Assembly: GCA_043825615.1 (NCBI GenBank)
Contig: JBDRRS010000007.1
Coordinates: 1-32,000 of the forward strand
Reading direction: 5' to 3'
Length of the DNA: 32,000 nt
Origin: a bacterium
GTDB taxonomy: Bacteria > CG03
Shown here: positions 3,001 through 30,490 of the stretch, in pieces
Position numbering within the stretch: the first letter of the stretch is position 1
How the letters are laid out: each line of letters begins with the position of its first letter
Position numbers and translations under genes: made by a program
The notes under the pieces: generated by a model
Told to the model about the DNA's origin: nothing
What the model saw: the letters and a program-made list of their open reading frames with translations, nothing else
Databases searched by the model: none

Positions 3001-6000
3001 ATCCAGCCGGTAACGATAATATCGTCGGTGGAATTTACCGCGACACCCTGCGCCGAATCGTCCATGGAAGAAGGTCCCGCATGGGTTACCGAAGAAATGA
3101 GAGTATCTAAAATTGCGTTGTACTTAACCGTAAAATAATCACTGTCGGCACCGTTGGATGACTCTCCCGTGACAATAACATTACCGTTTGAATCAATAGC
3201 GACGGCATTCGCAACGTCGTCTCCGTTAGCCGCTCCATTCAATGTTTCGGAACCGAGGAAACCCAGCGAAAAATTGTATCTCCTGATAATGTAATCGTTA
3301 TTTGCCCCATTGTTCGTGGCGCCGACAACAACAATCTCGCCATACGGAGATATCGCTATTCCGTAAGCGGCATCTGCATAAGTGCTGTCGTACACCGCCG
3401 AGGAAACAAGCACCAGCGATGAATCAAACTTAATAACCCTGATATCCGTATCAGTAGCATTGCTTTCATATCCCGCAACGAATACTTCCCCCGCGGGAGT
3501 AACAGCCACGGCATAAGCGCGGTCGTGACCATGGGCATCGCCGTCATAAACCGCAGAAGCAATTTTGTTGCCGTTTGAATCATATTTTATTATTACCCAG
3601 TCAAAACCCGAAGCCCCGTTTGAAGATGCGCCTACCATATAAATGTAAGGCCCGCCTCCTGAAATCGTGTCCACTGCCACACCGTAGGCAAAATCAGTGC
3701 TGTTGCCGTCGTAGTCAGCCCCGCCCGCTGACGAGAAATTCCCGGTAAAAGACCCCGGTGCACCGCCGCCATCTTGCGCCCTTGCGCAGTTTATTGAGGC
3801 GAAGCCTGACTGATATACGCTTATGTCCGGCCATGTTCCCAAGTTGCTTGCATCATCATATGCTTTGATTGCAAAATAATAAGTTGTCCCTCCGTTTAAA
3901 CCTGAAACAACCCTTCCCGTCTCTTCCTGACCGAAAGTTCCGGGCGTCCAGCCATCGGCATCCATGTATGTCGAAACTCTTGCGTCGTAAAAATCCCAAC
4001 CGCCGGAGCCAATTACATTTGTAGCGTATTTTACAATATACCCCTGAATGTTTCCGCCGCCTGTCCCATCGTCGCCGGGCGCTGTCCATTTAAGTTTTAC
4101 CGTCCCCCCGGAGTCCCCCGTCAGCGCCGTAAGATTTGAAATCGCCGACGGTGGAGTGGCATCTCCAGTGTAAGTTACCACAACTTTTATGAAATCCGAA
4201 TACAGAACGGAAGGCGGGTCTCCAATCCCAGCGCCCCTCCCCACGGCATACGCATAGAGATAACCGCCGGAAATGTAATTTCCGAAATTTGAAGCGATGG
4301 CGCTGCTTAAAACAACTTCCGCTTCGCCGTCATATCCGTCAAGGAAAATCCAGGCGGATGAATTAAAATCCCAGATACGAATCTGCGTCGATGTGCTGTT
4401 GAACGCGGTATTATATCCATCCCATTCAACATAAATCTGGCTGATACTTGAAGTCGCCTCGCCGATAGTAAATTTACAGTTTAAAAACGACATATTCGTG
4501 CTGTAAATTGCCGAGGAGTGATACACATCGTTCGCCGAATCTATGTTTGTGTAATCCGTTATTTCTATCTGACCCGTCAGAGCCGGACCTGATGTCGGCG
4601 GGTTGGAGGTATCGACTGCATCGTAAGCCCATTTGTCTGTACCTGCGCCGGTGGTAAAAGTGTATGTGCTTGAAGCGGCGACAGCCGCAGGAGTAACATT
4701 CGTTGACACACCCGTCGCGTAATTCGTTGAAGTATCAAAAGAGTATGCCTTGAAATAATATTTTGTGCCGTTACTAAGACTCGTCACCAAAAGAGTTTCC
4801 GCCGCTTTCGCTACATTCTCGCACCAGTCTCCGCCGGGGCCGCTGGCCGCTCCGTCCGTATACGCTGTTCCGTCAGATGGCGCCGTAAAACTGTTGTTCG
4901 TATTTCTGACGATAAGTATTTTATCCAAATCCGCGTCGGCGGGATCAGTCCAGACGAGCGTTGCTTGTGTATCGCCGGGCGTTGCCGTGAAACTTGTCAC
5001 GTCCGCCGGAGGGGTGGTGTCGCCACCAACGCCAATATCATGTTTTGAGAGCCAAATATTATAAGTTGCCTCACCTACAGAACCAGTTACATAGACATTA
5101 CCACTGGTATCTACTGCAACTCCATAACCAGAATCGCTACCATTTCCAGAACCATTTATCGACATACTTGACTGCAGAACTAAATTTGAATTATACTTTG
5201 CAAGCCAGATATCGGAATTCGTGCCATTATCAATATTACCAGTTACATAGACATTCCCACTTTCATCTGTTGTAACTCCTCTACCATAATCCGTACTATT
5301 AGCAGCATTACGACCATCAAATGTTGTGCCTGTTTGATAAATTAAATTCGAGTTATATTTATATACCCAGATGATAGGATTATTTGGCTCACCAAAAACA
5401 CCAGTTACATAAACATCCCCATTATTATCTACTGTAATTCCATAGCCATAATCATTATAAGAACCCTCAATTGTTTTACTGGATTGCAGAATTAGGTTTG
5501 AATTGTATTTTGCAAGCCAGGTATTGAAATCTGATTCATAAACACTACCAGTTACATAGACATTACCATTGGTATCTACTGCGATTCCATTTCCAGAATC
5601 GTTACCATTTCCAGAACCATTTATGGTTGTGCTTGATTGTAAAATCAGTCCTGAATTGTATTTTGCAACCCAGATATTTTTGTTTGCTCCATAATAAACA
5701 GAACCAGTTACATAGACATTACCACTGGTATCTACTGCAACTCCATAGCCACTACTATTAGAACCCCCTACTGTTATGCTTGACTGCAGTATTAGGTTTG
5801 AATTATATTTTGCAACCCAGATATCTGTCTCTACTCCTCCAGAGACATTACCAGTTACATAGACATTACCACTGGTATCTACTGCAACTCCATAACCAAA
5901 GTCATCATTATTTCCATAACCATTAAATGTCGTGCTGGACTGTAGAATCAGGTTTGAATTGTATTTTGCGACCCAGATGTTATTTGTCGCCGATTCATAA

Positions 6001-6179
6001 ACGTGACCAATTATATAAACATTACCACCGTTATCTACTGTAACTCCATAACCACCATCACTGTTATTCCCAGAACCGTTAAATGTTGTGCTTGAATAAT
6101 TGAATATAGCATGTGCACGTGATATAAATATAAAAAGTAGAAAAACCAGGATGGGAAAAACTATCCTTGAGATTGCCAC
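1..6179 (-). CDS. Very large secreted/surface mosaic protein, C-terminus beyond left edge: N-terminal hydrophobic segment, beta-propeller-like 'GYGVAVDTSGNVYVTG' repeats, FN3-like domains, second propeller-like repeat block, G8-like region, parallel beta-helix repeats
   Basis: Reverse-complement reading in one constant frame (codons at 3k..3k+2, checked near 5040, 3783 and 1203): 'VAISRIVFPILVFLLFIFISRAHAIFNYSSTTFNGSGNNSDGGYGVTVDNGGNVYIIGHV...'. It is absent from the ORF track because no stop lies inside the window. Start codon uncertain (GTG at 6179 or upstream TTG). Confidence 0.8.
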   Translation of the reverse strand, partial: MAISRIVFPILVFLLFIFISRAHAIFNYSSTTFNGSGNNSDGGYGVTVDNGGNVYIIGHVYESATNNIWVAKYNSNLILQSSTTFNGYGNNDDFGYGVAVDTSGNVYVTGNVSGGVETDIWVAKYNSNLILQSSITVGGSNSSGYGVAVDTSGNVYVTGSVYYGANKNIWVAKYNSGLILQSSTTINGSGNGNDSGNGIAVDTNGNVYVTGSVYESDFNTWLAKYNSNLILQSSKTIEGSYNDYGYGITVDNNGDVYVTGVFGEPNNPIIWVYKYNSNLIYQTGTTFDGRNAANSTDYGRGVTTDESGNVYVTGNIDNGTNSDIWLAKYNSNLVLQSSMSINGSGNGSDSGYGVAVDTSGNVYVTGSVGEATYNIWLSKHDIGVGGDTTPPADVTSFTATPGDTQATLVWTDPADADLDKILIVRNTNNSFTAPSDGTAYTDGAASGPGGDWCENVAKAAETLLVTSLSNGTKYYFKAYSFDTSTNYATGVSTNVTPAAVAASSTYTFTTGAGTDKWAYDAVDTSNPPTSGPALTGQIEITDYTNIDSANDVYHSSAIYSTNMSFLNCKFTIGEATSSISQIYVEWDGYNTAFNSTSTQIRIWDFNSSAWIFLDGYDGEAEVVLSSAIASNFGNYISGGYLYAYAVGRGAGIGDPPSVLYSDFIKVVVTYTGDATPPSAISNLTALTGDSGGTVKLKWTAPGDDGTGGGNIQGYIVKYATNVIGSGGWDFYDARVSTYMDADGWTPGTFGQEETGRVVSGLNGGTTYYFAIKAYDDASNLGTWPDISVYQSGFASINCARAQDGGGAPGSFTGNFSSAGGADYDGNSTDFAYGVAVDTISGGGPYIYMVGASSNGASGFDWVIIKYDSNGNKIASAVYDGDAHGHDRAYAVAVTPAGEVFVAGYESNATDTDIRVIKFDSSLVLVSSAVYDSTYADAAYGIAISPYGEIVVVGATNNGANNDYIIRRYNFSLGFLGSETLNGAANGDDVANAVAIDSNGNVIVTGESSNGADSDYFTVKYNAILDTLISSVTHAGPSSMDDSAQGVAVNSTDDIIVTGWIWDGADRDIFTIKYDNALSVLSSATYGNAINNDAARAVAVDGQNNVIVAGYQLNGSYNDYVTLKYSADLSTIFSSATYDSSYDDSVKGVAVGVSSAVYVTGYVSNSGTTGDTDFATMRYYLAGDSDPGPPAAVSDLAAYTGLSEGEVDLTWSAPGDDGWTDPLPAGSQFRIQYATYSTPVWMYQSAQVIKSTSGVSPTTQVSYTVTGLNAGATYYFKIWHADEVPNWSELSNGATAHAQVPQGGIWKSIQGGDWAAGAIWDKGSPPNPASVVEISHTVTFNMFNAECSSVTVYDFGTLQFDGAVSTRSLTIAGNLKIMGGVTGGKFLMPPNTGYISTLKIKCASAGQYGIIVQNGGVFDVRGNSMNFWRTTLSVQANSAQNQLTTTDSTGWKLGDVVTIGASSLSNTTEERTITLISGNVITLNSTLSVNHSAGAEVVNLLRNCVITSATSTYKAYIRNLSQTEANFNMKYVEASYLGVNSSGKYGITFDGSGTMGKINYCSIYNGGYDGIFFNSTSSNTITNNSCYSFYDGILLNNGVNNTLNNNSCYSNSQFGIHLLNTSSNTLSNNGCYSNSSYGIRVDNSSNNIFDNNSCYSNTSGIYFANTSNANVVDGNSCYLNSATGIYFYGSSSGTVINNSCYSNSEYGILVYYNSDSNTISNNSCYLNTFHGIFLFDSFNNTLSNNRCYSNSSGFRLNNGSNNIFINNSCYSNSQYGIFTRNSADNLVVDCKLGKEGNNTSGDIGYEAGFVSKLILKNCNLYSPTKVETSGIDTAGSYLISYNQDGSTGTTKIWGDYNIPSGSTGTFNYAGLLYVSAATQPNSTLKGTGSISSPQTSDGKTLTEFWEVKCTDASATSIFSVKRGTGNVLLLDTPSNAQELSEYTSSDRGVSFTVQTGDYQIGDAFYFVTVSSSNDAGVQKIIEFSSSTVGTRLNVEVGGTITMEGTPAEPTISTSSASGGYYGFASSGTMNASNYKFFNLNSEGLKLQGTAVDVVDLSSGT
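800..1520 (-). repeat. Parallel beta-helix (NosD-like) 22-24 aa repeats
   Basis: Repeated 'NTLSNNGCYSNSSYGIRVDNSSNNIFDNNSCYSNTSGIYF' with about 66-72 bp periodicity ('gagtarcaactgttatt'). Confidence 0.8.
2650..3760 (-). repeat. Second block of beta-propeller-like repeats inside the surface protein
   Basis: Repeated motif 'AVAVDSNGNVIVTGESSNGADSDYFTVKYN', 'GVAVNSTDDIIVTGWIWDGADRDIFTIKYD', 'AVAVDGQNNVIVAGYQLNGSYNDYVTLKYS'. Confidence 0.7.
5035..6110 (-). repeat. N-terminal tandem beta-propeller-like (SBBP-type) repeats
   Basis: Near-identical units '..NGSGNGNDSGNGIAVDTNGNVYVTGSVYESDFNTWLAKYNSNLILQSS..'; the DNA is also repetitive ('ccagttacatagacattaccactggtatctactgcaactcc'). Confidence 0.8.
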
Positions 6180-6522
6180 GCCGGCGGCTCGCAATAACAA
6201 AGAAGGGAAAATACAGCTATGCCTATCGGTAATCAGGGTTCTAATCCTTTTTCTTAATTTACCATATCCTGAAACTATTCTTTTAATCATTTAAAACCAA
6301 AATCCCATTTTTTATTTTTCCTCACCATCTGGTAATATTATATACTCAATTACTCCAGTTTGTCCACATGCTTTATGTCACAATGTGACAGAAGATACAA
6401 AATCCTAAAAGATAACTTTCGCATATAATTTTTTATAAATATTCATTCAACCATGTTCTCGCGTCCTTGACCCGAAAAATCAAAAAAGCAGGGCGCCATT
6501 TTCCATTTTCTTCATTTTCCGA

Positions 6523-6738
6523 TTATACTGATACCGGCGCAAGACTAAATACGCGCGCAAACTTCGTTGCTCTCCGGAGGTCGCCTTCTCGTAAAGATTC
6601 TCTCACCTCATCCAACTTTTGGGCATCTTCGAGAGAGAGATACGGCGACCAACCATCTCCCGTGTCAAGAATTTCCACATCAACTTCTGCGGCATACTCA
6701 CCTTCGCGCACCAGTTTAACATGATGTCTCTTTGTCAT
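6523..6738 (-). CDS. Small antitoxin-like protein, partner of the downstream DUF4258 protein
   Basis: 71 aa '[71 protein letters not shown]'; its ATG overlaps the stop of the gene at 6735-7073. Confidence 0.6.
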
Positions 6739-7073
6739 ACCCGCCTCCTCGTGAAATTATTCGTCCACATATTCGCATCTGGTCTATATGCTGTTACGAC
6801 TACGGCAGGAGAAGACGCACCTTTAGGAATTCCCCAAACCACATGAATCGGACGTGCATCTCTGTCTTTTTCCAAGACAAGAACACACGGACCCTTATGA
6901 TATTCAGGATAATCTTCTACCACAATCCCATTATTCACACCCGTTATTATATCTTTTACGAAAATACCGTCTTCTGCTATCTCATCGTAGCCATGATCGG
7001 AGACCTTAATCTCACGCCTTGCCACTAACTCTTTGATTCTTGCAAACATTTTCACTTTCACCGGTTTAAACAT
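6735..7073 (-). CDS. DUF4258 domain-containing protein (putative toxin)
   Basis: '[76 protein letters not shown]' is a typical DUF4258 pattern; 4-nt overlap with its partner. Confidence 0.7.
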
Positions 7074-7641: not shown

Positions 7642-7782
7642 GTTATTTCAATATTACTATATACTCTATTTAACTTCTATAATTATATAATGAAAGAAAA
7701 GTTTTGTCAATGTGCTTTTTGTCACAACTTTTAGCGTCGGGAAGCGCAATCTATCAACCGCTTATTTCCCTGAACGGCTAAA

Positions 7783-9693
7783 TCAAAAACTGTAGTACAG
7801 GCGGAAAAGGACGCCGGAAGAATCGTAATCGTCCGAATCGTCCTTCGTTTTGTTCCCTTCAAAAGTGTAGCCGCCCGTCAGAGAAAGATTTTTCTTCACC
7901 TTGTAAGTCACTTCGGCGGAGTAATTCGTCGTGTCCGTTAAAATGTCCTCTGCGGAAAGAGGCGTCGGCAGTTTTTCCCTTGTGGTGAGCGACCCGTATA
8001 TGAAAAAACCTAAGTCGCGGGTTATGCTGATGTTTGAGCCGAGCGAAAAAGACGTTATTTCGTCCTCGGAACAGTCGTTAAGATTTTTTGTATTATTTGC
8101 GGTATATCCGAGGTCAACGGAAACCGCGGCAATTATTTTACCCGAATATGTCACCGAAAACCCGTTCGTATCCAGGTCATTGCCGGTCGCGGTGGATGCA
8201 TAATTCCGGAACTGCGAGCGCGAAAAATTTGCGGCGACCACCTGGTTTTTGAAACAATAATTAATCCCGCAGCTGAGACCCGCTGTTTCGTTGTTCAGCA
8301 CCGTCAAGGAACTTCCCTCAACTTTGTTTATGCTGGATGCCGCGCTGATTCCGGGAAGGCCCGAAGGCGTAAGCTGTATGCCGCCCTGCAAAATTGTCTG
8401 GTCCGTCGTAACCACTTCGGGGTCGTTGTCAAGATTATCTTCGGTCGCCTGGTATCCGCAATTCAATCTCAAAAATGCAACAGGATAATAATTAAGAGAG
8501 GTGTCCATGCCTGCCCTGTCGGGATAAATTCCCGGGCTTGCTAAATTCAGGAAATCGGGTTCTATTCTCTGATATTTGCCGCGCACATCAAAGGTCTTGC
8601 GGTAAACCCGCATTTCAAATCTGTAGGCCGTTCCCGGCGTTGACGCGCTGTTTTCATAAGACAGCGACGACGGGTTATAGAAATTTTCCTGACGGCCGCT
8701 GCGGGCGTACTCCCCCTGCACATTCAGGAAAGAACACGACCACTGGAGTTCGGAACTCATAACGGTGTTATCCACCGCCTGATTGGAAGGGCCGGGATTG
8801 CTGACGGAACTTTCCGAATCATACGTCGTCACGCCGGATACTTTTAGACCGAAGTCGGCGGGCAATTTTACTTTTGCGCTCATGCCTCCCGTATATCTCG
8901 CATACACGCCGTTGGTTGAGGCGTCGCCCTCCGCCGCCTCCTGCGTCCTTATGTAACACCCCGAAAAATCGGTATAATCCGTCCTGTAATTCAGATTCGT
9001 CCCGCGTCCTGTAAGAGAATAAATTGACAAAGGAGAAAAATCGGGCATGACGTCTCCTGCGGACAACTTATACCTGTCTGAAAAAACCGAAAGAAAAAGC
9101 ATATCAAGATCGAAACTGTCGTCTTCCGTTGAGTACGCATTCGAGTTGAAAATCAGAGTTTTCCCGTAAATTCTTCCTAAAAGATTCGTCGCCAGAGACC
9201 CCTGATAACCGCTCCTCTGCGTATTTTTATACGATAAAGAAACATTGCCGTTCAGAAAAACGGGCCGCACCGGTTTTTTCTCCAGCGCCGACGCCTTTAC
9301 ATTAAAATCGTAAAAATCACTCGTCAGGATGTTCTGCCCTTTTTTGTAAAGCATCACGCGATACCGGTACCTCCCCGTATAGGAAGAGGGTATTCCGTAA
9401 GTTACAAGCAGGAGCGTCGAACCGCCGGGCTGCACTTCCCCGCTTATGTTTTCCGGCGGCGTTTTCTGAATGTAATTACCCTCCGAATCAAACAGTTCAA
9501 TGCGGCAGTTTACATCTGCCGGCGGCCATTTTACCGTCTCCATATTCAGAAGAATAACCTGAAAAGTAATGTTTTCGCCCGCTTTGGCGGGGTCGGGAGC
9601 GGCGACGGAGAGCTGTATCTGCGCCGGCGACTGGGCGAAAATAATACGGGCAAGAAAAAAAACGCACAAAAAAATATAAAATCTGTTCTTCAT
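7783..9693 (-). CDS. Outer-membrane beta-barrel protein with N-terminal Ig-like periplasmic region
   Basis: 636 aa with signal peptide 'MKNRFYIFLCVFFLARIIFAQ', alternating amphipathic strands, and a terminal 'LFRLYYSF' (aromatic C-terminus typical of barrels). Confidence 0.7.
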   Translation of the reverse strand: MKNRFYIFLCVFFLARIIFAQSPAQIQLSVAAPDPAKAGENITFQVILLNMETVKWPPADVNCRIELFDSEGNYIQKTPPENISGEVQPGGSTLLLVTYGIPSSYTGRYRYRVMLYKKGQNILTSDFYDFNVKASALEKKPVRPVFLNGNVSLSYKNTQRSGYQGSLATNLLGRIYGKTLIFNSNAYSTEDDSFDLDMLFLSVFSDRYKLSAGDVMPDFSPLSIYSLTGRGTNLNYRTDYTDFSGCYIRTQEAAEGDASTNGVYARYTGGMSAKVKLPADFGLKVSGVTTYDSESSVSNPGPSNQAVDNTVMSSELQWSCSFLNVQGEYARSGRQENFYNPSSLSYENSASTPGTAYRFEMRVYRKTFDVRGKYQRIEPDFLNLASPGIYPDRAGMDTSLNYYPVAFLRLNCGYQATEDNLDNDPEVVTTDQTILQGGIQLTPSGLPGISAASSINKVEGSSLTVLNNETAGLSCGINYCFKNQVVAANFSRSQFRNYASTATGNDLDTNGFSVTYSGKIIAAVSVDLGYTANNTKNLNDCSEDEITSFSLGSNISITRDLGFFIYGSLTTREKLPTPLSAEDILTDTTNYSAEVTYKVKKNLSLTGGYTFEGNKTKDDSDDYDSSGVLFRLYYSF

Positions 9694-9695
9694 CT

Positions 9696-10400
9696 TTATG
9701 CGATAAAAGCAATCCCTGCAAAAATAAAAGCGGGAAACAAAACGCTTCCGAGAATCCTGTTGAACACGGGAAAATTAAAATCATATCTCTTCAGAGCTGC
9801 GGCCGAGCAGAGAAACAAAACAAGCGGGCCCGCGAACACGTTTCCCCCGCAGTCGGCCCAGATATTCCTTCTCACGAGGATAAAGAAAAAAAGAGCGCTT
9901 CCGGAAATCAGCAGCAAAATTATTCTTGAAACATTAAAACCTGCGCCGGAAAAAACATGGACCGCATGATAAAGCGCCTCGGATTTGTAAAAAAGAAAAC
10001 TGAAAACCGCTATAAAAACGCCCGCTGTGACATAGAAATAATTCAATTTGAGATGAACTTTGAGAACGCGTAAATAGAAATTGTATAAAATTTTCTTGAT
10101 GTCGCGCTTCTCCGCCTTTTGCTCGGAGGTTTTAAGAAGCCGTTTCTTAAAATTGTCGATAACCGGAGACGTAACCTCGTAAGACATCACCTCGCGGAGT
10201 TCTTTATCCGTTGACTCATCCCCCGAAGAGATGGATTCCATCGCGCGCCGGCGCTCTTCGCCGGCTTTTTTCGTGTCATCCGCCCGGCGGGCCAGCGACG
10301 ACTGCAGAACACCCGCCTTCTTTTTTATAATACCCTGAATTTTCCCGCCGAAAATGGCAATTCCGCAAAGAACAATAACAAAAACTACTCTGAATTTCAT
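9696..10400 (-). CDS. Hypothetical integral membrane protein
   Basis: 234 aa with an N-terminal signal/TM segment, a charged region and several C-terminal hydrophobic helices; 2-nt spacing to neighbours. Confidence 0.6.
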   Translation of the reverse strand: MKFRVVFVIVLCGIAIFGGKIQGIIKKKAGVLQSSLARRADDTKKAGEERRRAMESISSGDESTDKELREVMSYEVTSPVIDNFKKRLLKTSEQKAEKRDIKKILYNFYLRVLKVHLKLNYFYVTAGVFIAVFSFLFYKSEALYHAVHVFSGAGFNVSRIILLLISGSALFFFILVRRNIWADCGGNVFAGPLVLFLCSAAALKRYDFNFPVFNRILGSVLFPAFIFAGIAFIA

Positions 10401-10402
10401 AA

Positions 10403-10711
10403 TTACATCAAACCCGCCGTCCTGCCCACGTCATGGATAAAAGCCAAACCGTTGCCGGGTTTATCAAGTTTCCCGACGGCAACAATCCTGTCGAAGACCT
10501 CATCAACACGCTCGCCGGGAACAACCGTCATAAAGACCTCTTTTTCCGGATTTATGAAAGCCCTCCTGAAAAAACCGAGTTTCTGCCTGACCCCCGTTCC
10601 CCGCGCGTAGAAAATCGTCGCGCCCGAAACATTCATTTTCAAAATTTCCTTCACAATTTTATTGGCTTTTCCCCTGTCCACAACGCACGTAATCAATTTC
10701 AGATTCTCCAT
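10403..10711 (-). CDS. PII-like (GlnB-fold) protein
   Basis: 'MENLKLITCVVDRGKANKIVKEILKMNVSGATIFYARGTGVRQKLG...EKEVFMTVVPGERVDEVFDRIV' resembles PII-family strand/helix organisation. Confidence 0.65.
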   Translation of the reverse strand: MENLKLITCVVDRGKANKIVKEILKMNVSGATIFYARGTGVRQKLGFFRRAFINPEKEVFMTVVPGERVDEVFDRIVAVGKLDKPGNGLAFIHDVGRTAGLM

Positions 10712-10770
10712 TCATCCTCCGTCATATTTACTCTTTTATACTGCACTGTGAAAATGACCGTTGCCTTTTA

Positions 10771-11085
10771 TTAATCCCTCTTGTAAAACCCGAACGCCTT
10801 CTCCACGTCCTGAACAAAAACAAAACCCCTCGCCGTTTCCTTCAGATTGGCAAGTTCAATAATTCTGCCGAACATATCATCCGTTTTTTCCTCCGGCACA
10901 ACCGTCATAAAGACATCTTTTTCCGGCTCTATCAACCTTCCCTTAAGCCCGATTTTCTCCCTCACTCCCGTTCCGACGCCGCGGAAACTCGTCACGCCAG
11001 AAATGCCCATTTTCAAAATTTCCTTTATTATACCGTCCGCTTTTCCCTGCTCTACAATGCACGTTATCAACTTATACTTTTCCAT
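10771..11085 (-). CDS. Second PII-like protein, tandem paralogue
   Basis: 'MEKYKLITCIVEQGKADGIIKEILKMGISGVTSFRGVGTGVREKIG...EKDVFMTVVPEEKTDDMFGRIIELA' is clearly homologous to 10403-10711. Confidence 0.65.
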   Translation of the reverse strand: MEKYKLITCIVEQGKADGIIKEILKMGISGVTSFRGVGTGVREKIGLKGRLIEPEKDVFMTVVPEEKTDDMFGRIIELANLKETARGFVFVQDVEKAFGFYKRD

Positions 11086-11097: not shown

Positions 11098-11140
11098 ATC
11101 AGGGCGGCGGGAGGCTTGCCCCGTTGGGGGTGGCGTCCAT
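11098..11140. repeat. Copy 1 of a dispersed GC-rich mini-repeat (TTATCAGGGCGGCGGGAGG...GGTGGCGTCCAT)
   Basis: Direct sequence match to 14199-14228. Confidence 0.7.
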
Positions 11141-12015
11141 TACCGCAGACCTCCCTTCTTTCTTTTCCTTTCCTGCTTCTCCAGCGATTTAAGGAACTTT
11201 TTTATGTCCTTATTATCAGGATTTATCTTCAGCGCATCTTCCCAGTTTTTTTTCGCCGCGGAAAAATTTTTAAGCGCGTAATAAGCCGAGCCCCTTCTCA
11301 TCAGGGCAAGCTCCTTGTTTTCGTCCAGCGCCAGAGCTCTGTCGCAGGCAATAATCGCCCCCGTATAATCCGCCTTATAAATGGAATCCAGCGAACTCTG
11401 GAGCAGCTGATGCAGCAAATCCATTCCTTCTATGAGTTTTATCTTGGACCTTTCTTCGGGATAAACGCTTTCAAAATAAGAAAGAATGCCGGTTATCTGT
11501 TCCCGCCGGCGGTCGTCCTTATTTATCTGTCCCGCGTATATCAGCGCGTCAAAAATCAAACCCGGTTTTTTCTCCAGATACGCCACGATGCCTTTTCTCA
11601 CATACTGCAAGACCTTATCCTGACCGGAAGAGTCCTTTACCAGCGAAGAAATTTTTTCAAGTTTTTCTTTTTTTTCAGCGACGCCGGGATAAGTCGGGTC
11701 AATGTCCATTATGCGTTTAGCCGTATCGGAAGCCGCAAACCACCTGCCTGCCATTATCTGTTCTTCAAACGCCCTGACTTTCGGATTGAGTTCGTCCTCT
11801 ATCTTCTGTCTGATGAACTTTATCATCTTTAACGGCGGTGTCTGCTCCGGGTCAATTTCAAGAATTCTCTGCCAGCAGCGTATTGCATCGCTGTATTTCC
11901 CCGCCGTGTAATATTTTACGGCGGAATTATACAGACCTTTTATGTCTTCTCCGGCAAAAGCAATAATGGGGACGGTTCCTAATATGCACAATCCCACCAA
12001 TTTCTTAAACATCAA
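11140..12015 (-). CDS. Secreted/periplasmic tetratricopeptide-repeat protein
   Basis: Signal-like 'MMFKKLVGLCILGTVPIIAFAGEDI', then TPR-like 'YNSAVKYYTAGKYSDAIRCWQRILEIDPE' and 'LMRRGSAYYALKNFSAAKKNWEDALKINPDN'. Confidence 0.8.
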   Translation of the reverse strand: MMFKKLVGLCILGTVPIIAFAGEDIKGLYNSAVKYYTAGKYSDAIRCWQRILEIDPEQTPPLKMIKFIRQKIEDELNPKVRAFEEQIMAGRWFAASDTAKRIMDIDPTYPGVAEKKEKLEKISSLVKDSSGQDKVLQYVRKGIVAYLEKKPGLIFDALIYAGQINKDDRRREQITGILSYFESVYPEERSKIKLIEGMDLLHQLLQSSLDSIYKADYTGAIIACDRALALDENKELALMRRGSAYYALKNFSAAKKNWEDALKINPDNKDIKKFLKSLEKQERKRKKGGLR

Positions 12016-12064
12016 TCGCCAAACTCCATTAAAATCATCTCCTCGGATAATTAGGAACCGTCCC
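11969..12064. repeat. Inverted pair GGGACGGTTCCTAAT (11969-11983) / ATTAGGAACCGTCCC (12050-12064)
   Basis: Perfect 15-nt reverse complements bracketing the start of the TPR gene; further core copies at 7148-7161 and 15615-15626. Confidence 0.8.
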
Positions 12065-12726
12065 TAATTCTTACTAATTCTTAAAATGCTTATTTCAATG
12101 CGGCGGTTCTGAGCCCGTCCTGATGCGGCGGCGTTATCCGCAACGGGATAATATTCGCCGAAACCGTAAGCGGAAAATCTTCCCGGATGTATTTTTTCAA
12201 CATCAATAAAATATTTTATAACGCTGAATGCCCGGAGGGTTGAAAGTTCGAAATTGCCGCCGGGCAGCTGCCTGAACGAAATATTATCGGTGTGCCCCGC
12301 AACATTTATTTTATTATCCGTTCCTTTTAAGACCTCTGCGACTTTATGCAAAGTCAGATGACTGCTTTTTTTAAGGTCGGAAGAACCCGAATCAAAAAGA
12401 ACGGGGCTCTCCATCATTATTCTTATTTTCCGCGCATCCATTTTGATGACGCCTTCGCCGTCCCTGAATATCTCCGATATTTTTTCAGCCATTTCAACAT
12501 CCTTCATAGAACTTTTTTCCCGCGAAACACCCGCCTGGAGACGCGCGATAACACCTTCGTATCTGACCCCCGACTTCAATGAAATGACATAAAGTATCAG
12601 AAAAAAAATCATACAGAGAAGCATCATCGTGCCGTAAGGCGTTTTCCACGAAGAGGGATCAAAACCCTTCCCGTATTTTACCGCCCTGTCGGTATGCCTT
12701 CTCCCTGAGCCTGCAATCACGCTCAT
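12064..12726 (-). CDS. MotB/OmpA-family protein with one N-terminal TM lacking the MotB aspartate
   Basis: TM 'TPYGTMMLLCMIFFLILYVISL'; OmpA-like domain 'PVLFDSGSSDLKKSSHLTLHKVAEVLKGTDNKINVAGHTDN...AASGRAQNRRIEISI'. Confidence 0.8.
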   Translation of the reverse strand: MSVIAGSGRRHTDRAVKYGKGFDPSSWKTPYGTMMLLCMIFFLILYVISLKSGVRYEGVIARLQAGVSREKSSMKDVEMAEKISEIFRDGEGVIKMDARKIRIMMESPVLFDSGSSDLKKSSHLTLHKVAEVLKGTDNKINVAGHTDNISFRQLPGGNFELSTLRAFSVIKYFIDVEKIHPGRFSAYGFGEYYPVADNAAASGRAQNRRIEISILRISKN

Positions 12727-13391
12727 TCAATATCCTGCTTGAGCAGCACAATTTCAATTCGCCGGTTTTTCTGGCGCGACGTCGGGGTCTCGTTGGAAAA
12801 CCTTGGAAAATACTCTCCGTATCCGGCGGCGACAAACCTTTCCGGCGGGAAACCCCTGCCGATAAAATAATCGATAACGTTTACCGCCCGGCGGGCGGAA
12901 AGTTCCCAGTTCGAACGGAAAAGAGCGCTCTTAATCGGCACATTATCCGTGTGTCCTTCGACAATCACTTTATCGTCCGTCATAGATAAAGTTCTCGCTA
13001 TTTCATTCAGTAATTTCTTCGTTTCATCTTTTACCAGCGCGCCGCCGGAATCAAAAAGCACCGGCGTGTTCAGGACAAGCCGTATCTGGCTTTCATTAAC
13101 CTCCAGGGTGGAGTATTTTTTAAGATTGCCTTTCTGAAGCAGTTCTTCCAAATTGCTCTGCGTTTCATCCTCCGCAAACTTTTTCAGAACATTATCCGCC
13201 TTATGTCTTAAGACCACATCCTTCTTCCCGGCGCTGCTCAGCGCGGAATGCATCTGGCGCTGCTGCGATTGGGAAAGGCGCGTAAAACCGTACAGCAGGA
13301 GAAAAAAAAGCATAAGATTCGTCGTCATATCGCAGAACACGGTAAGCCAGATGGGTTCTCTTTGAACTTTCCTGAACGCCTTAAAAATCAT
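12723..13391 (-). CDS. MotB-like stator protein with conserved TM aspartate and OmpA-like peptidoglycan-binding domain
   Basis: 'REPIWLTVFCDMTTNLMLFFLLLYGF' (compare MotB 'W..tfsDlmtlLl.FFvlL'), then 'VLFDSGGALVKDETKKLLNEIARTL...VEGHTDNVPIKS...NRRIEIVL'. Confidence 0.82.
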   Translation of the reverse strand: MIFKAFRKVQREPIWLTVFCDMTTNLMLFFLLLYGFTRLSQSQQRQMHSALSSAGKKDVVLRHKADNVLKKFAEDETQSNLEELLQKGNLKKYSTLEVNESQIRLVLNTPVLFDSGGALVKDETKKLLNEIARTLSMTDDKVIVEGHTDNVPIKSALFRSNWELSARRAVNVIDYFIGRGFPPERFVAAGYGEYFPRFSNETPTSRQKNRRIEIVLLKQDIE

Positions 13392-13418: not shown

Positions 13419-14186
13419 TCATTTCTTCCGCTTCTCCCTGATGCGTTTTGAGAGAAACGCCTCAAGACGGTGCAAGGTTATGGACGGGACTTCCTGATTG
13501 AGTATTGATTCTATTCCTTCGGCTATCAGTTCCTTGGCAAGAATCTCATCGTTCGAGTACTCTCCGAGTTTCAGCGAAGCGGGTAAAAAAAGAAAATTCG
13601 CGCCGAAAATACCGTAAAATGTCGTCGTAACGGCAATAGCCATGGAAGCACCCATACTCGCCGGGTCCTGCAGATTTTTCAGAACCTGAATAACCCCTAT
13701 AAGCGTGCCCAGTAAACCGAATATGGGAGAAAAAGTAGCCATTGCCTGCAAGACCCCCGATGTCCTTTCATGCCTCTGGGCGACGGAAAAAATTTCCTGC
13801 CTCATGTTTTCAAGAATTATTTCCTTTTCCACGCCGTCGGATATTTTTTTAACGTTGGCGGAGAGGAATCTGTTCTTTGCCTGAACCGGCGAATCAGACA
13901 GAACCATAAAACCGTTTCTCTTAGCCGCGGCGGACAGAACCGCAATGTCTTTTACGAGTTTGTTTATATCCGTCGGAGGAGGAGGAAAAAGTATGAGTTT
14001 AACCGCAGACGGAACCTGCTTTATGCTGCGGAAAGGAAATGCAATTAACGTCGAACCGAGAGTCCCTCCGAACACAAGAATAGCGGCATCCAAATTAAAA
14101 AGGAGATAAACGACATCCCCGTGAAGCATGACCAAATAAACGGCGCCGGTTCCGAGAGCAAAACCAAGAACAGTCATCAGGTCCAT
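13419..14186 (-). CDS. MotA-like stator channel protein
   Basis: 'MDLMTVLGFALGTGAVYLVMLHGDVVYLLFNLDAAILVFGGTLGSTLIAFP' and 'MATFSPIFGLLGTLIGVIQVLKNLQDPASMGASMAIAVTTTFYGIFGANFLFLPAS', typical MotA features, 255 aa. Confidence 0.88.
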   Translation of the reverse strand: MDLMTVLGFALGTGAVYLVMLHGDVVYLLFNLDAAILVFGGTLGSTLIAFPFRSIKQVPSAVKLILFPPPPTDINKLVKDIAVLSAAAKRNGFMVLSDSPVQAKNRFLSANVKKISDGVEKEIILENMRQEIFSVAQRHERTSGVLQAMATFSPIFGLLGTLIGVIQVLKNLQDPASMGASMAIAVTTTFYGIFGANFLFLPASLKLGEYSNDEILAKELIAEGIESILNQEVPSITLHRLEAFLSKRIREKRKK

Positions 14187-14229: not shown

Positions 14230-15630
14230 TTAACCCCGCTTTCCCCGCGGCGGGGCGTCTTCGTCCGCCTGCGGCGTGGCGAGCAAACCGTCTTTTCTCA
14301 ATTTGTCCGCAACGCGGGCGAGCGCTTTTTTATCTTCTCTTAACCTCGCGGGCCCGGGAGATGCGCCAAGTTCTATTTCTTCCTTCAGACGCGTCGCAAT
14401 GCCCTCCGGAAGTTTCTCCAGAATGCCGTTTCTTACGCTTTCTTCCAGCGTCCGGAGCACGTTCGCAAACGCCACCGGCGTGAAACTCCGGCTCAGCAGA
14501 AGAATATCCCCGGAAGTCATATCCGCAAGAGACCCCGCGCGAAAAACAGCCGACCTCAACTCATCCGCAAAAAGCGAGTCGCTCTGCGCTATGAAATCGA
14601 GATAAGAATCCATTTCTTCGTCGCCCAAACCCTCCAGAATTTCTTTAACGACTTCTTTCCCGCCGACCATAAAATCCATCTTCTGCCTGAGATGCTCTTC
14701 CCATTTAAGAACCTCGTCCGGGGGCAGAGTTCTCGTCTGCGCAAGTTTTGACAATGCCTCGCGGGCCTGCGCAGGCTCCAAACCCGACAGGACTTTATTC
14801 GCCACCTGCGGAGCGTAATTGATCAAAACGGCAATGTTTTCGGGCTTTTCCTTCTTAAGAAGAAAAAGAAGTTTATCCGTATTTTCCTCGTTTACAAAAG
14901 AAAAATGCTTTTTGACGCCCTCTCTTTCTCCGCCGGCAGCGCCCATCCCTGCAGCCGGAGCGGCTGCGCTCACAGAGGAACTAAAAGCCGCCGCTGTTTC
15001 GCTTTTTTTCAAAGAACTTTCAAGCGTTTCGGATATAATCCCCGCCGCGCGGGGAAACACGCGCATTCCGAAAACAAAAAGAACCGCTATCAGAATAACG
15101 GCAAGACCTGAAAACAGCAGACCCCATAAATGCGGCGGATATATGATATCCGACCACTTGAAGGGATTTTCTCTGAAATTCATTTTCTTGATGATGAGCG
15201 CATCGCCGCGGGCGGCCTCAAGCCCGAGGACGCTCGTCGAGACCTCTCTTATTATATTAACCATGCTTTCGGGAAGGCCGTTGTCCACGATAATCTGCGC
15301 AGTGAGTTTCTTTATGTTTTTCGCCGTGTCTCCGAGGTCAAGACTCGCCAGCCCGAGGCCGAGTTTCTCCTGCAGGGGAACCCCCGGCAGGACGACCGCC
15401 TCCTCATCCTCATCTTCCGAACTGCTGCTTATCAACTGAACGTTTATAACGATTAACAGCTTGTCCGTCCCTGTTATTTCGGTCAATATCCGTCTTAACC
15501 TTTCCTCAAGATTCTTTTCTATGGCGATTTTTGTTTCTATGTCGGAACCTTGTTTTGCAAAGGCATTGCCCGGCAGCGCAGGAAGGAAAAAACAGAAGAG
15601 CGAGAAAAGAATAATGGGGACGGTTCCCAT
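14230..15630 (-). CDS. FliF C-terminal (RBM3-like)/TM/FliG-like fusion, membrane-anchored rotor protein
   Basis: Signal peptide; 'IEKNLEERLRRILTEITGTDKLLIVINVQL' and 'REVSTSVLGLEAARGDALIIKKMNF' (FliF 'iG...RGD.v.v...F' pattern); TM 'LWGLLFSGLAVILIAVLFVFG'; FliG-like 'PENIAVLINYAPQVANKVLSGLEPAQAREALSKLAQT' and 'LAARG-type ...ASPGPARLREDKKALARVADKLRKDGLL' (compare FliG-C 'GPVRLSDVEEAQ..I..ia..Le.eGei'). Confidence 0.72.
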   Translation of the reverse strand: MGTVPIILFSLFCFFLPALPGNAFAKQGSDIETKIAIEKNLEERLRRILTEITGTDKLLIVINVQLISSSSEDEDEEAVVLPGVPLQEKLGLGLASLDLGDTAKNIKKLTAQIIVDNGLPESMVNIIREVSTSVLGLEAARGDALIIKKMNFRENPFKWSDIIYPPHLWGLLFSGLAVILIAVLFVFGMRVFPRAAGIISETLESSLKKSETAAAFSSSVSAAAPAAGMGAAGGEREGVKKHFSFVNEENTDKLLFLLKKEKPENIAVLINYAPQVANKVLSGLEPAQAREALSKLAQTRTLPPDEVLKWEEHLRQKMDFMVGGKEVVKEILEGLGDEEMDSYLDFIAQSDSLFADELRSAVFRAGSLADMTSGDILLLSRSFTPVAFANVLRTLEESVRNGILEKLPEGIATRLKEEIELGASPGPARLREDKKALARVADKLRKDGLLATPQADEDAPPRGKRG

Positions 15631-15635: not shown

Positions 15636-16136
15636 TTAAAACTCCTCCGCAACAACACCCGCTATCATCCTGACCGTTTCAATGTCCTGCTGGGAAAGGA
15701 CTTCCTTCGACGTGAGTTTTTTCGCGTTAATAACGCCGATTGCCCTGCCGTTTTTTATCACCGGCACGCTTAAGCCGGAAGTTATATTCTCATACTTTGC
15801 CAAATGCGCAAAACTTCTGTGCTGGGAAACTTCGCCGACGATAAGAAACGGTTTTTTTTCTGAAACGGCGCGGCCGGCGACCCTCTCGCCGACTTTGATT
15901 TTTATCCCGAGTTTCTTGTTCGCGCTCTCGGCGTCGGGTTCTGCTGCCGCCACAATTTCTATCTCATCCGACGTTTCATCCCTGAGCATAAAAGAGCATC
16001 CGTCGGCTTTTATGAAACCGGCAAGAATCTTCAGTGCGACAACAACCACTTTCCTTTTTTCCGCTCCGAGCTTTTCATCCGACACAAAAACAGGCATAAC
16101 ACCCCCTTCCCCCCGGCGATTCCGCCGGAGGAACAA
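15636..16136 (-). CDS. GAF-domain protein
   Basis: 'ADGCSFMLRDETSDEIEIVAAAEPDAESANKKLGIKIKVGERVAGRAVSEKKPFLIVGEVSQHRSF...SVPVIKNGRAIGVINAKKL' is a clear GAF pattern; the real start may be the internal MPVFVSDEK. Confidence 0.82.
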   Translation of the reverse strand: MFLRRNRRGEGGVMPVFVSDEKLGAEKRKVVVVALKILAGFIKADGCSFMLRDETSDEIEIVAAAEPDAESANKKLGIKIKVGERVAGRAVSEKKPFLIVGEVSQHRSFAHLAKYENITSGLSVPVIKNGRAIGVINAKKLTSKEVLSQQDIETVRMIAGVVAEEF

Positions 16137-16190
16137 GTAAGAATAATCACTTTACTCTTTCCCCGTGAAAGGCATTATATAAATTATAAT

Positions 16191-17018
16191 ATGGGAAATC
16201 AAATCTACTTAGGTGGTAAAATGTTTTTTGATTTTGTAAAATACAAAAATATGAAATTGGAAAAACAGATTGCGAACTGGATTAAAGGACAGGTAAAAAA
16301 AGCAAAGGCAAAGGGTATTGTCGTCGGTTTGAGCGGCGGGGTGGACTCATCCCTCTGCGCGGCTCTGTGCAAAGAAGCCCTCGGTAAAAAACTTTTAGGG
16401 CTGATAATGCCCTGCCATTCGGACACCGTGGATACCGCAGACGCTCTGATGTTTTCCAAAAAATTCAACATCCGGACGAAAAAAATCGACCTGACAAAAA
16501 CTTATGACTCCCTGACCCTGCTGTATCCTTCCGGCGGCAAAACAGCGCTGGCAAACATAAAGCCGCGTCTCAGGATGATTACGCTGTACTACTTTGCCAA
16601 TTCTTTGAATTACCTGGTCTGCGGAACGGGGAATAAGAGCGAAGCAATGATGGGCTACTTCACCAAATACGGAGACGGCGGCGCCGACATTCTGCCGCTG
16701 GGCGATATTCTGAAGACGGAAGTGCGGCACCTCGCCCGTAATATGGGCATACCAAAAAAAATAATTGACAAAGCCCCTTCGGCGGGCCTCTGGAAAGGAC
16801 AAACCGACGAGGGGGAAATGAAGATTACCTACGATAACCTTGACGCTCTTTTATCAAAATTATCTCCTTATCCGGATGGCGGGAGGCTGAAAGTGCGCCG
16901 TGGCGTGGTGGCGTCCGAATTAAAAAAATGGTTGAAAACAAAAAACAAACTGGTAAAAAGAAAAATAAAACAGTCGCGGCACAAACTGTCCCCCCCCCCT
17001 GTTTTCCGGAAATCGTAA
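16191..17018 (+). CDS. nadE: NAD+ synthetase (ATP-PP loop)
   Basis: 'GIVVGLSGGVDSSLCAALCKEALG', 'VCGTGNKSEAMMGYFTKYGDGGADILPLGDILKTEVR', 'KAPSAGLWKGQTDEGEM'. Likely true start 16221 (AGGTGG spaced before ATG). The C-terminal part is atypical. Confidence 0.9.
   Translation: MGNQIYLGGKMFFDFVKYKNMKLEKQIANWIKGQVKKAKAKGIVVGLSGGVDSSLCAALCKEALGKKLLGLIMPCHSDTVDTADALMFSKKFNIRTKKIDLTKTYDSLTLLYPSGGKTALANIKPRLRMITLYYFANSLNYLVCGTGNKSEAMMGYFTKYGDGGADILPLGDILKTEVRHLARNMGIPKKIIDKAPSAGLWKGQTDEGEMKITYDNLDALLSKLSPYPDGGRLKVRRGVVASELKKWLKTKNKLVKRKIKQSRHKLSPPPVFRKS
16869..16917. repeat. Copy 3, divergent, of the GC-rich mini-repeat, inside nadE
   Basis: TTATCCGGATGGCGGGAGGCT...GTGGTGGCGTCC. Confidence 0.55.
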
Positions 17019-17049: not shown

Positions 17050-18018
17050 TTATTTAGACGGACTTTCTCCGGGAACAAACGGCGTCGTTACCCTGTCTAT
17101 ATCCATGGGTATCAATGCTATCTCAATCCTTCTGTTTTTCGTTCTCCCCTCTACCGTGTCATTTGTATCAATGGGTTTGGTGTCGGCATATCCTGCCACC
17201 GAAATAAATATTGAGTCAATACCCACTTTGTCTATCAGATATCTGGCTATGTTCGTCGCTCTCGCTGTTGAAAGCTCCCAGTTTGTGGGGTATTTGCCCC
17301 TTAGTTTGGGTCCAATCGGCACATTATCCGTATGTCCTTCAATACGGATTTGTTTGTCTTTGATATTCTTTAAAATATTCCCGACCCTGTTGAGGACCTG
17401 TTTGCCTTCTTTCCGGACTTCAGCCTCTCCCAGCGGAAACATCAGTTTATCCACGATGTTAACCGACAACTTGTCTTTAAGCTGAGTAATTTTTATCTGT
17501 CCGTCCTGCACTTCCTTTTCCATATCCTGGACAAGATTCTCGTATGTTGACTTCAATCTGCCGACTTCGTCTTCTTTTGCTTTTGATACCGCGTCTATAC
17601 TGTCCTGCAGTTCGATATTCATGGCATTCGCAGCGGACAGCTGTTTCTTTAAATCCAATACGGTTTTTTCTTTTTCCCGTTTACTAACGGTAAGGTCCGC
17701 TATCAATTTGTCTTTTTCGCTTTTTTTGGCCTCCAGCACGGATATGAGATTACTGCTGTCTTTCTGCAAAATTGAATACTGCTCTTTGATTTCCGCCGCC
17801 TCAAGTTCGAGTTTCTGTTTCTCGTTAGAGACCGTCTGCAGGCTTTCTTCCGCCTGCTTCAACTTTGTTATAAGTTCGTCATTCCCGTTACGAAGAACTT
17901 CCGTTTCCTCTACTTTCATCCGGTACTTCCCGGTCGTAACGCATCCGACCAAAAAAACGCAAAATAAACCCATGGCTAAATTCTTAACGCTTCTTTTCAT
18001 CTTCTCTCCTTTTAGCAA
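17050..18018 (-). CDS. OmpA/MotB-domain lipoprotein with long coiled coil
   Basis: Lipobox 'CVFLVGC'; coiled-coil heptads; 'IRIEGHTDNVPIGPKLRGKYPTNWELSTARATNIARYLID...GRTKNRRIEIALIP'. Confidence 0.85.
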   Translation of the reverse strand: MLKGEKMKRSVKNLAMGLFCVFLVGCVTTGKYRMKVEETEVLRNGNDELITKLKQAEESLQTVSNEKQKLELEAAEIKEQYSILQKDSSNLISVLEAKKSEKDKLIADLTVSKREKEKTVLDLKKQLSAANAMNIELQDSIDAVSKAKEDEVGRLKSTYENLVQDMEKEVQDGQIKITQLKDKLSVNIVDKLMFPLGEAEVRKEGKQVLNRVGNILKNIKDKQIRIEGHTDNVPIGPKLRGKYPTNWELSTARATNIARYLIDKVGIDSIFISVAGYADTKPIDTNDTVEGRTKNRRIEIALIPMDIDRVTTPFVPGESPSK

Positions 18019-25884: not shown

Positions 25885-25885
25885 T

Positions 25886-28111: not shown

Positions 28112-28207
28112 ACATATAATTGTATGTTATCATACATTACCTTGCATCATTTTATACAATAATAATAAATTTGTCAAGTGTTTTTTCAACGAGCGCCCTT
28201 CCACACC

Positions 28208-30489: not shown

Positions 30490-30490
30490 T

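Follow-up and report, generated by a model that had tools for sequence, protein, structure and literature searches.

A predicted minimal FliF(RBM3)-FliG rotor protein encoded within a conserved, apparently non-flagellar stator gene module

The gene considered here lies on the reverse strand of a 32,000-nucleotide stretch of bacterial DNA (positions 1 to 32,000 of contig JBDRRS010000007.1, assembly GCA_043825615.1, GTDB lineage CG03), which is referred to as the window. It encodes a 466-residue protein, hereafter the fusion protein, whose database annotation is only 'FliG C-terminal domain-containing protein'. The open reading frame (ORF) was found to have exactly the ends given in the original prediction, which had described a signal-peptide-like start, a FliF-like periplasmic signature, one transmembrane helix, a low-complexity linker and segments of the FliG middle (M) and C-terminal (C) domains. 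All of these elements were present in the ORF, and the C-terminal string quoted in that prediction, 'GPARLREDKKALARVADKLRKDGLL', was found in the protein. The G+C content across the window ranged from 33 to 53%, and the composition was unbroken at this gene. Profile comparisons and a structure model, made with AlphaFold 2 (AF2), support the presence of both a FliF-like half and a FliG-like half in one polypeptide. The segments of the protein are listed below; RBM stands for ring-building motif.

14230..15630, reverse strand: fusion of RBM3, a transmembrane helix and FliG (M and C domains), putative rotor subunit; 466 residues, ATG start
15553..15630, reverse strand: residues 1-26, hydrophobic N-terminus ending in AFA (followed by KQ), read from the sequence
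15172..15552, reverse strand: residues 27-153, FliF RBM3-type periplasmic ring-building motif, alpha-beta-beta-alpha-beta (AF2, Foldseek, family profile, PF08345)
15316..15432, reverse strand: residues 67-105, acidic insertion between RBM strands beta1 and beta2, with an LPGVP motif
15058..15132, reverse strand: residues 167-191, single transmembrane helix with basic residues on the cytoplasmic side (AF2 helix 166-191)
14911..15057, reverse strand: residues 192-240, low-complexity Ala/Ser/Gly linker of about 50 residues
14665..14910, reverse strand: residues 241-322, FliG middle domain (ARM-M), starting at the conserved 'FSF' motif (Pfam, profile, Foldseek)
14281..14664, reverse strand: residues 323-450, Gly-Gly hinge (G323, G324) and FliG C-terminal domain (Pfam, Foldseek)
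14368..14406, reverse strand: residues 409-421, torque-helix equivalent (EGIATRLKEEIEL), from alignment to Thermotoga maritima FliG

The FliG identity of the C-terminal half, judged by sequence comparison, is certain. Both Pfam domains scored above their cut-offs, FliG_M (PF14841) at residues 253-319 (E-value 6.8e-8, 33.1 bits, cut-off 25) and FliG_C (PF01706) at residues 347-448 (E 3.2e-7, 31.0 bits, cut-off 23.3). When a profile of 27 full-length homologues was compared with the T. maritima FliG-MC crystal structure 1LKV, positions 239-450 were matched with an E-value of 4.8e-42, and all significant matches of this profile in the PDB were FliG. The alignment opened at the shared 'FSF' motif, directly past the boundary between the N and M domains of FliG, with KPFSFV of T. 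maritima set against kkFsFv and SEHPQTIAVV against kekpeniavv, and it spanned the Gly-Gly hinge, whose two glycines were kept in at least 111 of the 119 family sequences. Residues 239-448 were also aligned to positions 108-324 of the 338 in the NCBIfam fliG model TIGR00207; at 44.1 bits, far under the cut-off of 226.7, the fusion protein was not recovered as a fliG equivalog. The FliG N-terminal domain was not found, the sole match to PF14842 being below the cut-off and overlapping the M domain, and the FliG part opened at about residue 240, after the linker. A helical repeat of the MgtE-N type alone, which had been named as a possible alternative, was rejected since the MgtE_N match (E 0.0016, 19.4 bits) was below its cut-off of 25.9, both FliG domains passed theirs, and the PDB matches were all FliG.

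The AF2 model, built for the monomer (domain pLDDT, the predicted local distance difference test, 77-93) and compared by Foldseek, had FliG-MC structures as its top matches. Single-domain superpositions on FliG gave TM-scores of 0.83-0.84 and root-mean-square deviations of 1.8-2.2 Å. The FliG_M domain was matched to 4qrm_D (TMt 0.83), and the FliG_C domain to 1qc7_B (TMt 0.84, deviation 1.9) and to 8ucs_H, the FliG fragment in a MotAB-FliG complex (TM-score 0.83, deviation 1.8 Å). The torque helix of the fusion protein was aligned to T. maritima KRAAALLKDELEY. Inspection of its charged residues, as the original prediction had proposed, revealed that E417 and E418 pair with the D-E of T. maritima LKDEL, which we take to be D288/D289 of Escherichia coli. 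Acidic residues were retained in the family: column 418 was E in 88 of the 119 sequences, and column 420 was E or D in 80.

In the N-terminal half, the AF2 model contained a helix (28-53), two strands (58-66 and 106-116), a second helix (121-135) and a third strand (144-150). Within residues ~27-153, the motif 'LG..ARGD.L.I....F' was recognised, and its R141, G142, D143 and F152 were invariant in the 27 homologues. The 'LG...RGD.L.I....F' signature corresponds to the conserved end of RBM3 and was aligned to FliF 'GFSDKRGDTLNVVNSPF'. The Pfam model of the FliF C-terminal region, PF08345 (YscJ_FliF_C), matched the isolated N-domain with an E-value of 4.9e-4 and 21 bits, still below the cut-off of 23.8, and a profile of close homologues matched FliF RBM3 with E-values of 0.004-0.2. 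In the wider family, PF08345 was matched in 43 of 56 members (best E 3.1e-12), and in distant members the full model was covered above threshold. A profile of the 56 N-domains matched the FliF RBM3 chain 9yh6 over the whole domain (E 4.3e-8) and Salmonella FliF (E 1.7e-7) in stretches 240-281 and 404-438, which flank the beta-collar; the next-best match after FliF was SpoIIIAG (E 6.6e-5). In the Foldseek comparison, FliF RBM3 and S-ring chains ranked right after FliG (E 4e-4 to 3e-3, TMt 0.55-0.60). The predicted RBM3 identity is weak for the fusion protein alone and significant at the family level only. FliF itself forms a homo-oligomeric ring of about 33-34 subunits.

The insertion at residues 67-105 occupies the position of the beta-collar in FliF and of the beta-triangle in SpoIIIAG, and it is much shorter than either. 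Its LPGVP motif was well conserved among the 119 sequences, P82 being invariant and G83 and P85 being conserved in at least 90%. A ring protein of the injectisome type (SctJ/PrgK) was rejected, because Foldseek matched PrgK and EscJ with E-values of 0.035-0.27, far weaker than FliF RBM3, and there were no type III secretion genes nearby. A separate upstream gene supplying RBM1 and RBM2 was likewise rejected: the upstream gene encodes a GAF protein or, in other loci, an outer-membrane barrel.

According to the original prediction, the protein omits RBM1, RBM2 and the first transmembrane segment of FliF. The first part stood, as PF01514 (RBM1/RBM2) had no match in the fusion protein or in 10 long family members and RBM3 opens about 27 residues from the N-terminus. 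The second part held less strictly, since the N-terminal segment could be an anchor. In the 27 homologues, this segment has an n-region with K/R and an AxA-like end, and AF2 placed a helix at residues 5-15 with low pLDDT. Residues 1-26 may act as a Sec signal peptide or, if left uncleaved, as an anchor that corresponds to the first transmembrane segment of FliF. A conserved W/YPP segment lies between RBM3 and the transmembrane helix, and a hydrophobic window at the position of this helix was kept in nearly all family members. The linker that follows had a pLDDT below 50 at residues 209-239 and was variable and gapped in the alignment. The FliF cytoplasmic C-terminal tail was not detected in the fusion protein. 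The covalent linker thus occupies the place of the flagellar non-covalent junction between the FliF C-terminal tail and FliG-N, both elements of which are missing.

The distribution of the family was studied with the N-domain profile of close homologues. An exhaustive hidden Markov model (HMM) search of 1.84 billion representatives yielded 413 proteins with E-values of at most 1e-3, of which 140 were at or below 1e-10; canonical FliF was absent from the 150 best matches. A word-indexed homologue search with an N-domain profile found three fragments only. With local HMMs, 143 of 144 full-length proteins with the RBM domain were found to have FliG-MC as well, in the same order, and the fusion architecture was present in at least 140 clusters at 50% identity. 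The motifs of the family were invariant across 119 sequences. A scan of one genome per species detected 15 loci, 13 of them in metagenome-assembled genomes (MAGs) titled Elusimicrobia or Elusimicrobiota and two in unclassified ones, and the named database members belonged to Elusimicrobiota, with two Omnitrophota/Omnitrophica labels. One family member (P0194, in the cluster of P0162) was deposited as 'Thermoprotei archaeon' on a 4.9-kb contig, which probably reflects faulty binning and not a true archaeal member. A distant branch, represented by loci L022 (4421-5977) and L025 (10001-12019), had a full-length Pfam match to the FliF C-terminal model. The L025 protein carries an extra C-terminal cytoplasmic TPR after FliG-C and is encoded next to PorV and CHU_C genes of the type IX secretion system (T9SS) type and a gene for an MglB-like Roadblock protein; two REC-GAF proteins are encoded beside the L022 gene.

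In the window, the gene of the fusion protein is the second in a same-strand series of genes, listed below in their order after the fusion gene with the upstream GAF gene placed first.

15636..16136, reverse strand: small cytoplasmic GAF-domain protein (Pfam GAF_2, E 4e-12), 5 bp upstream of the fusion gene
13419..14186, reverse strand: MotA/PomA-type stator A subunit, 255 residues (Pfam MotA_ExbB, PF01618, E 9e-24)
12723..13391, reverse strand: MotB1, with plug, transmembrane Asp (FCDMTTNLM) and OmpA-like peptidoglycan-binding domain (MotB_plug E 1.9e-8, OmpA E 5.8e-19)
12064..12726, reverse strand: MotB2, a MotB paralogue without the transmembrane Asp (PYGTMMLL; MotB_plug E 1e-6, OmpA E 6.6e-18)
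11140..12015, reverse strand: secreted TPR protein, 291 residues, candidate periplasmic scaffold (Pfam TPR_1/TPR_2; signal-like N-terminus)
10403..11085, reverse strand: two P-II-like small proteins of 104 and 102 residues (Pfam P-II, E 4.8e-10 and 1.2e-8)
9696..10400, reverse strand: membrane protein of 234 residues, no Pfam family
7783..9693, reverse strand: outer-membrane protein of 636 residues with a signal peptide, an Ig-like N-domain (24-133) and a ~26-strand beta-barrel ending in YYSF (AF2 pLDDT 81)

The spacing of these genes varied from a 4-nt overlap, that of MotB2 with MotB1, up to 59 bp. A sigma70-like site was detected at 16202..16174, upstream of the GAF gene, and a perfect sigma70 consensus promoter at 7710..7682, past the last gene of the series and upstream of a giant ORF. 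These two sites fit one transcription unit from about 16.1 kb to 7.8 kb; the promoter and terminator scan was not enriched over shuffled sequences and provides a positional hint only.

The order fusion-MotA-MotB1-MotB2 was found in 20 of 20 Elusimicrobiota loci, and the TPR gene followed MotB2 in all complete ones; the fusion gene is thus placed first among the structural genes of the module. Among all loci compared (designated by L numbers), the core of fusion, MotA and two MotB genes was present in L001-L021, L023, L024 and L026, and it was kept down to 21-24% identity (L005, L024). Relative to L006 and L004, the ratio of nonsynonymous to synonymous substitution rates (dN/dS) was 0.06-0.56 for the five core genes. 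Comparative sequence evidence is taken here to have demonstrated the domain homologies, the fixed architecture, the conserved operon and the purifying selection.

The A subunit has four transmembrane helices, the MotA_ExbB domain and a charged cytoplasmic loop. It was matched over its full length by the NCBIfam models of MotP, MotA and PomA (E 1e-42 to 1e-48, all below the equivalog cut-offs), and the ExbB and TolQ models gave E-values of about 1e-3 only. Basic K/R residues were aligned at the positions of R88/K89 in what we take to be the PomA reference, and the channel prolines were retained. The MotA gene adjoins that of the fusion protein in all 20 of the Elusimicrobiota loci, as well as in L023, L024 and L026. 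MotB1 has the plug, the transmembrane Asp and the OmpA-like domain together, and its Asp was present at every locus. In MotB2 of L001-L021, the Asp position was occupied by Thr in the clade of the window, by Asn or Ser in others, and by Asp in L013, L018, L020 and L021. Since the dN/dS of MotB2 was 0.11-0.56, this paralogue is under constraint. That an Asp-less MotB2 is conserved points to an asymmetric stator of MotB1 and MotB2, or to a subunit that serves as an anchor and conducts no ions. A place in Zorya or another defence system was considered and rejected, because PADLOC found no ZorA, ZorC or ZorD and the similarity to ZorB was generic for the MotB family.

The outer-membrane protein at the end of the series belongs to no known family. 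It ends in an aromatic beta-signal, and the best fold match of its barrel in the PDB was MtrB (6r2q_B, E 2.3e-12), followed by ushers, TonB-dependent transporters and LptD. A homologue of the barrel adjoins the module, upstream or downstream, in 12 loci. The P-II-like pair and the 234-residue membrane protein, which lie between the TPR and barrel genes, were found only in close relatives of the window (L004, L006, L007, L009), and it is doubtful that they are members of the same machine. The GAF gene is immediately upstream of the fusion gene also in L004 and L006-L010. By comparison with homologues, translation of the GAF gene probably begins at the Met at 16097 (MPVFVSD...), and its product is likely a regulator. 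Signalling genes recurred near the module: single-domain receivers were encoded in L004, L005, L023, L024 and L026, and a HAMP histidine kinase in L024.

The remaining features recorded in the window were the following.

3-6290, reverse strand: giant ORF truncated at the window start (at least 2096 residues); beta-helix, SBBP beta-propeller and fn3 domains
6735-7073 and 26869-30871, reverse strand: toxin-antitoxin or defence-like genes (DUF4258, DUF6036 nucleotidyltransferase, Macro domain, Fic, ParE toxin)
17050-18018, reverse strand: 322-residue protein located 1 kb from the operon; lipoprotein signal (LVGC), long coiled coil, OmpA-like domain
24646-26560, reverse strand: trehalose synthase (TreT) and DUF5752 pair
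28956-29302, reverse strand: tmRNA gene (Rfam 173.8 bits; ARAGORN-predicted tag ANSTLATATC, an unusual degradation-tag ending)

Giant proteins of the fn3 type also flank the module in L004 and L021, and the nearby giant beta-helix/fn3 proteins would be candidates for the material moved or exported if the module is a motor acting at the cell surface. The 322-residue lipoprotein may be a tether between the outer membrane and peptidoglycan. The TreT-DUF5752 pair was also found near the module in the distant locus L021 (4823-6713).

Genes for flagellar export, rod, hook, filament and FliM/FliN were absent from the 32-kb window and from the Pfam-annotated flanks of L001-L005 and L021-L026. According to a preprint on Elusimicrobiota (10.1101/2022.07.08.499144, section 13), most free-living members of the phylum are without structural flagellar genes and yet have homologues of motAB and fliG, the role of which was called 'enigmatic', and a few members have complete flagellar gene sets (10.1101/2022.07.08.499144). 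The fusion of FliF RBM3 and the conserved module are not described in that preprint, and motility genes are not discussed in a paper on the groundwater genomics of Elusimicrobia. Literature searches for a natural FliF-FliG fusion or a non-flagellar FliG/MotAB machine returned only a passing remark in that preprint, which concerns magnetotaxis in Elusimicrobiota. The original prediction had regarded natural FliF-FliG fusions as known in principle; no report of one was found, and the documented fusions were made in the laboratory in Salmonella (PMC7355467) and Vibrio (PDB 8z4d). Cells with the Salmonella fusions, one of which is without most of FliG-N, were still motile and formed C rings (PMC7355467), and the arrangement of RBM3, transmembrane helix and FliG is therefore mechanically plausible.

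Considering these data, the fusion protein is likely, though by no means assuredly, the rotor subunit of a stand-alone, non-flagellar, ion-driven rotor-stator module. Its description as a minimal ring scaffold and as torque-transmitting is a reasonable inference. Under this model, the RBM3 domains would assemble into a homo-oligomeric ring, as in FliF, and each ring subunit would put one FliG-MC unit under the membrane, so that a FliG ring would form without a FliF-C/FliG-N junction. MotA5-MotB stators would be held on peptidoglycan by the OmpA-like domains, with MotB2 either paired with MotB1 or serving as a structural anchor. Basic residues of the MotA loop would engage the acidic torque helix (E417, E418, E420), and ion flow would turn the ring. 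A connection from the ring or stators to the outer membrane might be made by the TPR protein together with the Ig-like periplasmic domain of the barrel protein; in Campylobacter, stators are scaffolded by TPR proteins of the periplasm, and TPR genes are reported to be widespread near flagellar gene clusters (PMC11870540). The GAF protein, or the single-domain receivers in other loci, might regulate the motor instead of FliM/FliN. As a guess, the output would be the moving or exporting of something at the cell surface. It is possible, though somewhat less likely than not, that the RBM3-FliG ring, spun by MotA, MotB1 and MotB2 and coupled through the TPR protein to the ~26-strand barrel, represents an undescribed class of envelope machine that moves or exports surface material; it could just as well be a living model of the workings of the flagellar motor core apart from type III secretion, with a bearing on the evolution of the flagellum.

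Several observations weigh against the rotor interpretation. PF08345 was below threshold for the fusion protein alone (E 0.01, 16.7 bits, cut-off 23.8), and the insertion at the collar position is only about 38 residues long and was disordered in the AF2 monomer (pLDDT below 50). In the torque helix, Gly occupies the position that we take to be R281 of E. coli, with a family-specific Arg four residues later. The EHPQ-like motif that the original prediction proposed to inspect was not there: the FliM-binding site is altered, EKPEN in the fusion protein standing against EHPQT in T. maritima, and the interface is non-canonical. Among the 119 members, P, S or D prevailed at the His position of this site, and E, D or R at the Gln position. 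The AF2 model is that of a monomer with a predicted TM-score (pTM) of 0.38, and oligomerisation, stator binding and rotation are inferred. No rod-like or shaft-like partner was identified among the module genes, and the mechanical output is unexplained. In the distant branch (L022, L025), there are no adjacent motAB genes. Support for the apparent lack of flagellar genes comes from the flanking regions and a single preprint.

In a competing interpretation, the ring does not turn. It might be a docking platform, fixed in place (e.g., via the TPR protein or the barrel), which recruits and unplugs MotA-MotB so that stator rotation or ion flow energises an outer-membrane process in a manner like that of Tol-Pal, ExbBD-TonB or GldLM. 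The module has envelope-spanning partners, the TPR protein and the ~26-strand barrel, and no shaft; the Asp-less MotB2 could be the driven element, in loose analogy to TonB or TolA; and the distant branch adjoins the T9SS-type PorV and CHU_C genes. However, FliG-C is the driven partner of MotA in every case studied, and the acidic residues of the torque helix are conserved here. Moreover, an RBM3 ring on single transmembrane helices has no evident anchor to peptidoglycan, and the MotA is of the flagellar PomA/MotP type, not of the ExbB/TolQ type (E ~1e-3). A static platform, the main competing reading, is considered unlikely.

It is quite improbable that the fusion protein is a divergent true flagellar MS-ring/C-ring protein whose partner genes lie elsewhere in the genome. 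RBM3, FliG-MC, the PomA-like MotA and MotB are all of the flagellar type, complete flagellar sets do occur in a few Elusimicrobiota, and the search for flagellar genes covered the window and flanks rather than a whole genome. Nevertheless, FliG-N is missing, as are RBM1 and RBM2, the domains around the export gate in FliF; the TIGR00207 score of 44 bits is remote from the cut-off of 226.7, and not a single flagellar gene was found in the 32-kb window or in the flanks annotated at about a dozen loci. Instead, the module comes with the TPR gene in all complete Elusimicrobiota loci and with the barrel gene in 12, and the preprint cited above reports such homologues of motAB and fliG from genomes that lack structural flagellar genes. 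Least credible is a functionless, decaying relic of a flagellum since lost. Most of the lineage has no flagella, the catalytic Asp of MotB2 was lost in many lineages, and the equivalents of EHPQ and R281 are changed, but against this the full-length architecture is kept in at least 140 clusters at 50% identity, the motifs are invariant in 119 sequences, the gene order persists down to 21-24% identity, and the dN/dS values are well below 1.

The most likely origin of the module is exaptation of a flagellar motor core, given that RBM3 and the PomA-type stators are both parts of the flagellar kind and that complete flagella persist in a few Elusimicrobiota. Descent from a motor older than the flagellum, and not from a flagellum that was reduced, appears very improbable.

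Studies of FliG and MotAB have hitherto concerned their part in the flagellum, in which torque is passed into a rod and filament built by type III export. Here, the rotor-stator interface protein and the ring scaffold would be one polypeptide, under selection, in a mostly flagella-less lineage; it is read as a naturally occurring, minimal rotor protein of predicted FliF(RBM3)-FliG type that belongs to a non-flagellar stator module of conserved gene order. If the ring turns, it would be the simplest known flagellar-type rotor, with one rotor gene and three stator genes, and would suit structural and single-molecule torque studies. It would also mean that the motor core is separable from secretion and reusable, which would inform models of flagellar origin, and would point to an undescribed motility or surface-transport mechanism in Elusimicrobiota. 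The Asp-less MotB paralogue raises the question of an asymmetric stator.

The module can be compared with several known systems. GldLM of the T9SS/gliding machinery, AglRQS, ExbBD-TonB, TolQRA and ZorAB of Zorya are likewise non-flagellar, outer-membrane-linked, ion-driven motors of the MotA/ExbB family, but they lack a ring partner of the FliG-like or RBM kind, and none of their A subunits is of the flagellar PomA/MotP type. AglRQS has two different B-type subunits. MotX and MotY of Vibrio are periplasmic stator scaffold proteins; the extra OmpA protein of the module, unlike the soluble MotY, is a full MotB paralogue with a plug and a transmembrane helix. As with PflA/PflB of Campylobacter, a secreted TPR protein is encoded beside the stator genes, and such proteins position stators (PMC11870540); sequence homology of the module proteins to PflA/PflB or MotX was not shown, and the TPR comparison is an analogy only. 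SpoIIIAG, which forms the ring of the sporulation channel, is similarly a single-pass protein with an RBM3-like domain, an inter-strand insertion and a large ring outside the cytoplasmic membrane (a ring that is presumed for the fusion protein); it differs in having no FliG domain or stator, in serving sporulation in Firmicutes and in having its transmembrane helix N-terminal to the RBM.

The nearest terms of comparison are the flagellar ones. Compared with FliF, the fusion protein is without RBM1 and RBM2 and so has no housing for an export gate, and the stretches matched in Salmonella FliF are separated by about 120 residues as against the ~38-residue collar insertion here. Compared with FliG, it has EKPEN in place of EHPQ and Gly at the position taken as R281, and the neighbourhood, unlike that of a flagellum, has no genes for FliM/FliN, type III secretion, rod, hook or filament. 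It shares with the laboratory Salmonella FliF-FliG fusions a 1:1 stoichiometry through covalent linkage, the difference being that the fusion here is natural. With the MS-ring/C-ring junction of the flagellum it shares the co-encoded MotA and MotB and the same order of parts, RBM3 in the periplasm, a transmembrane helix, and FliG-M and FliG-C in the cytoplasm.

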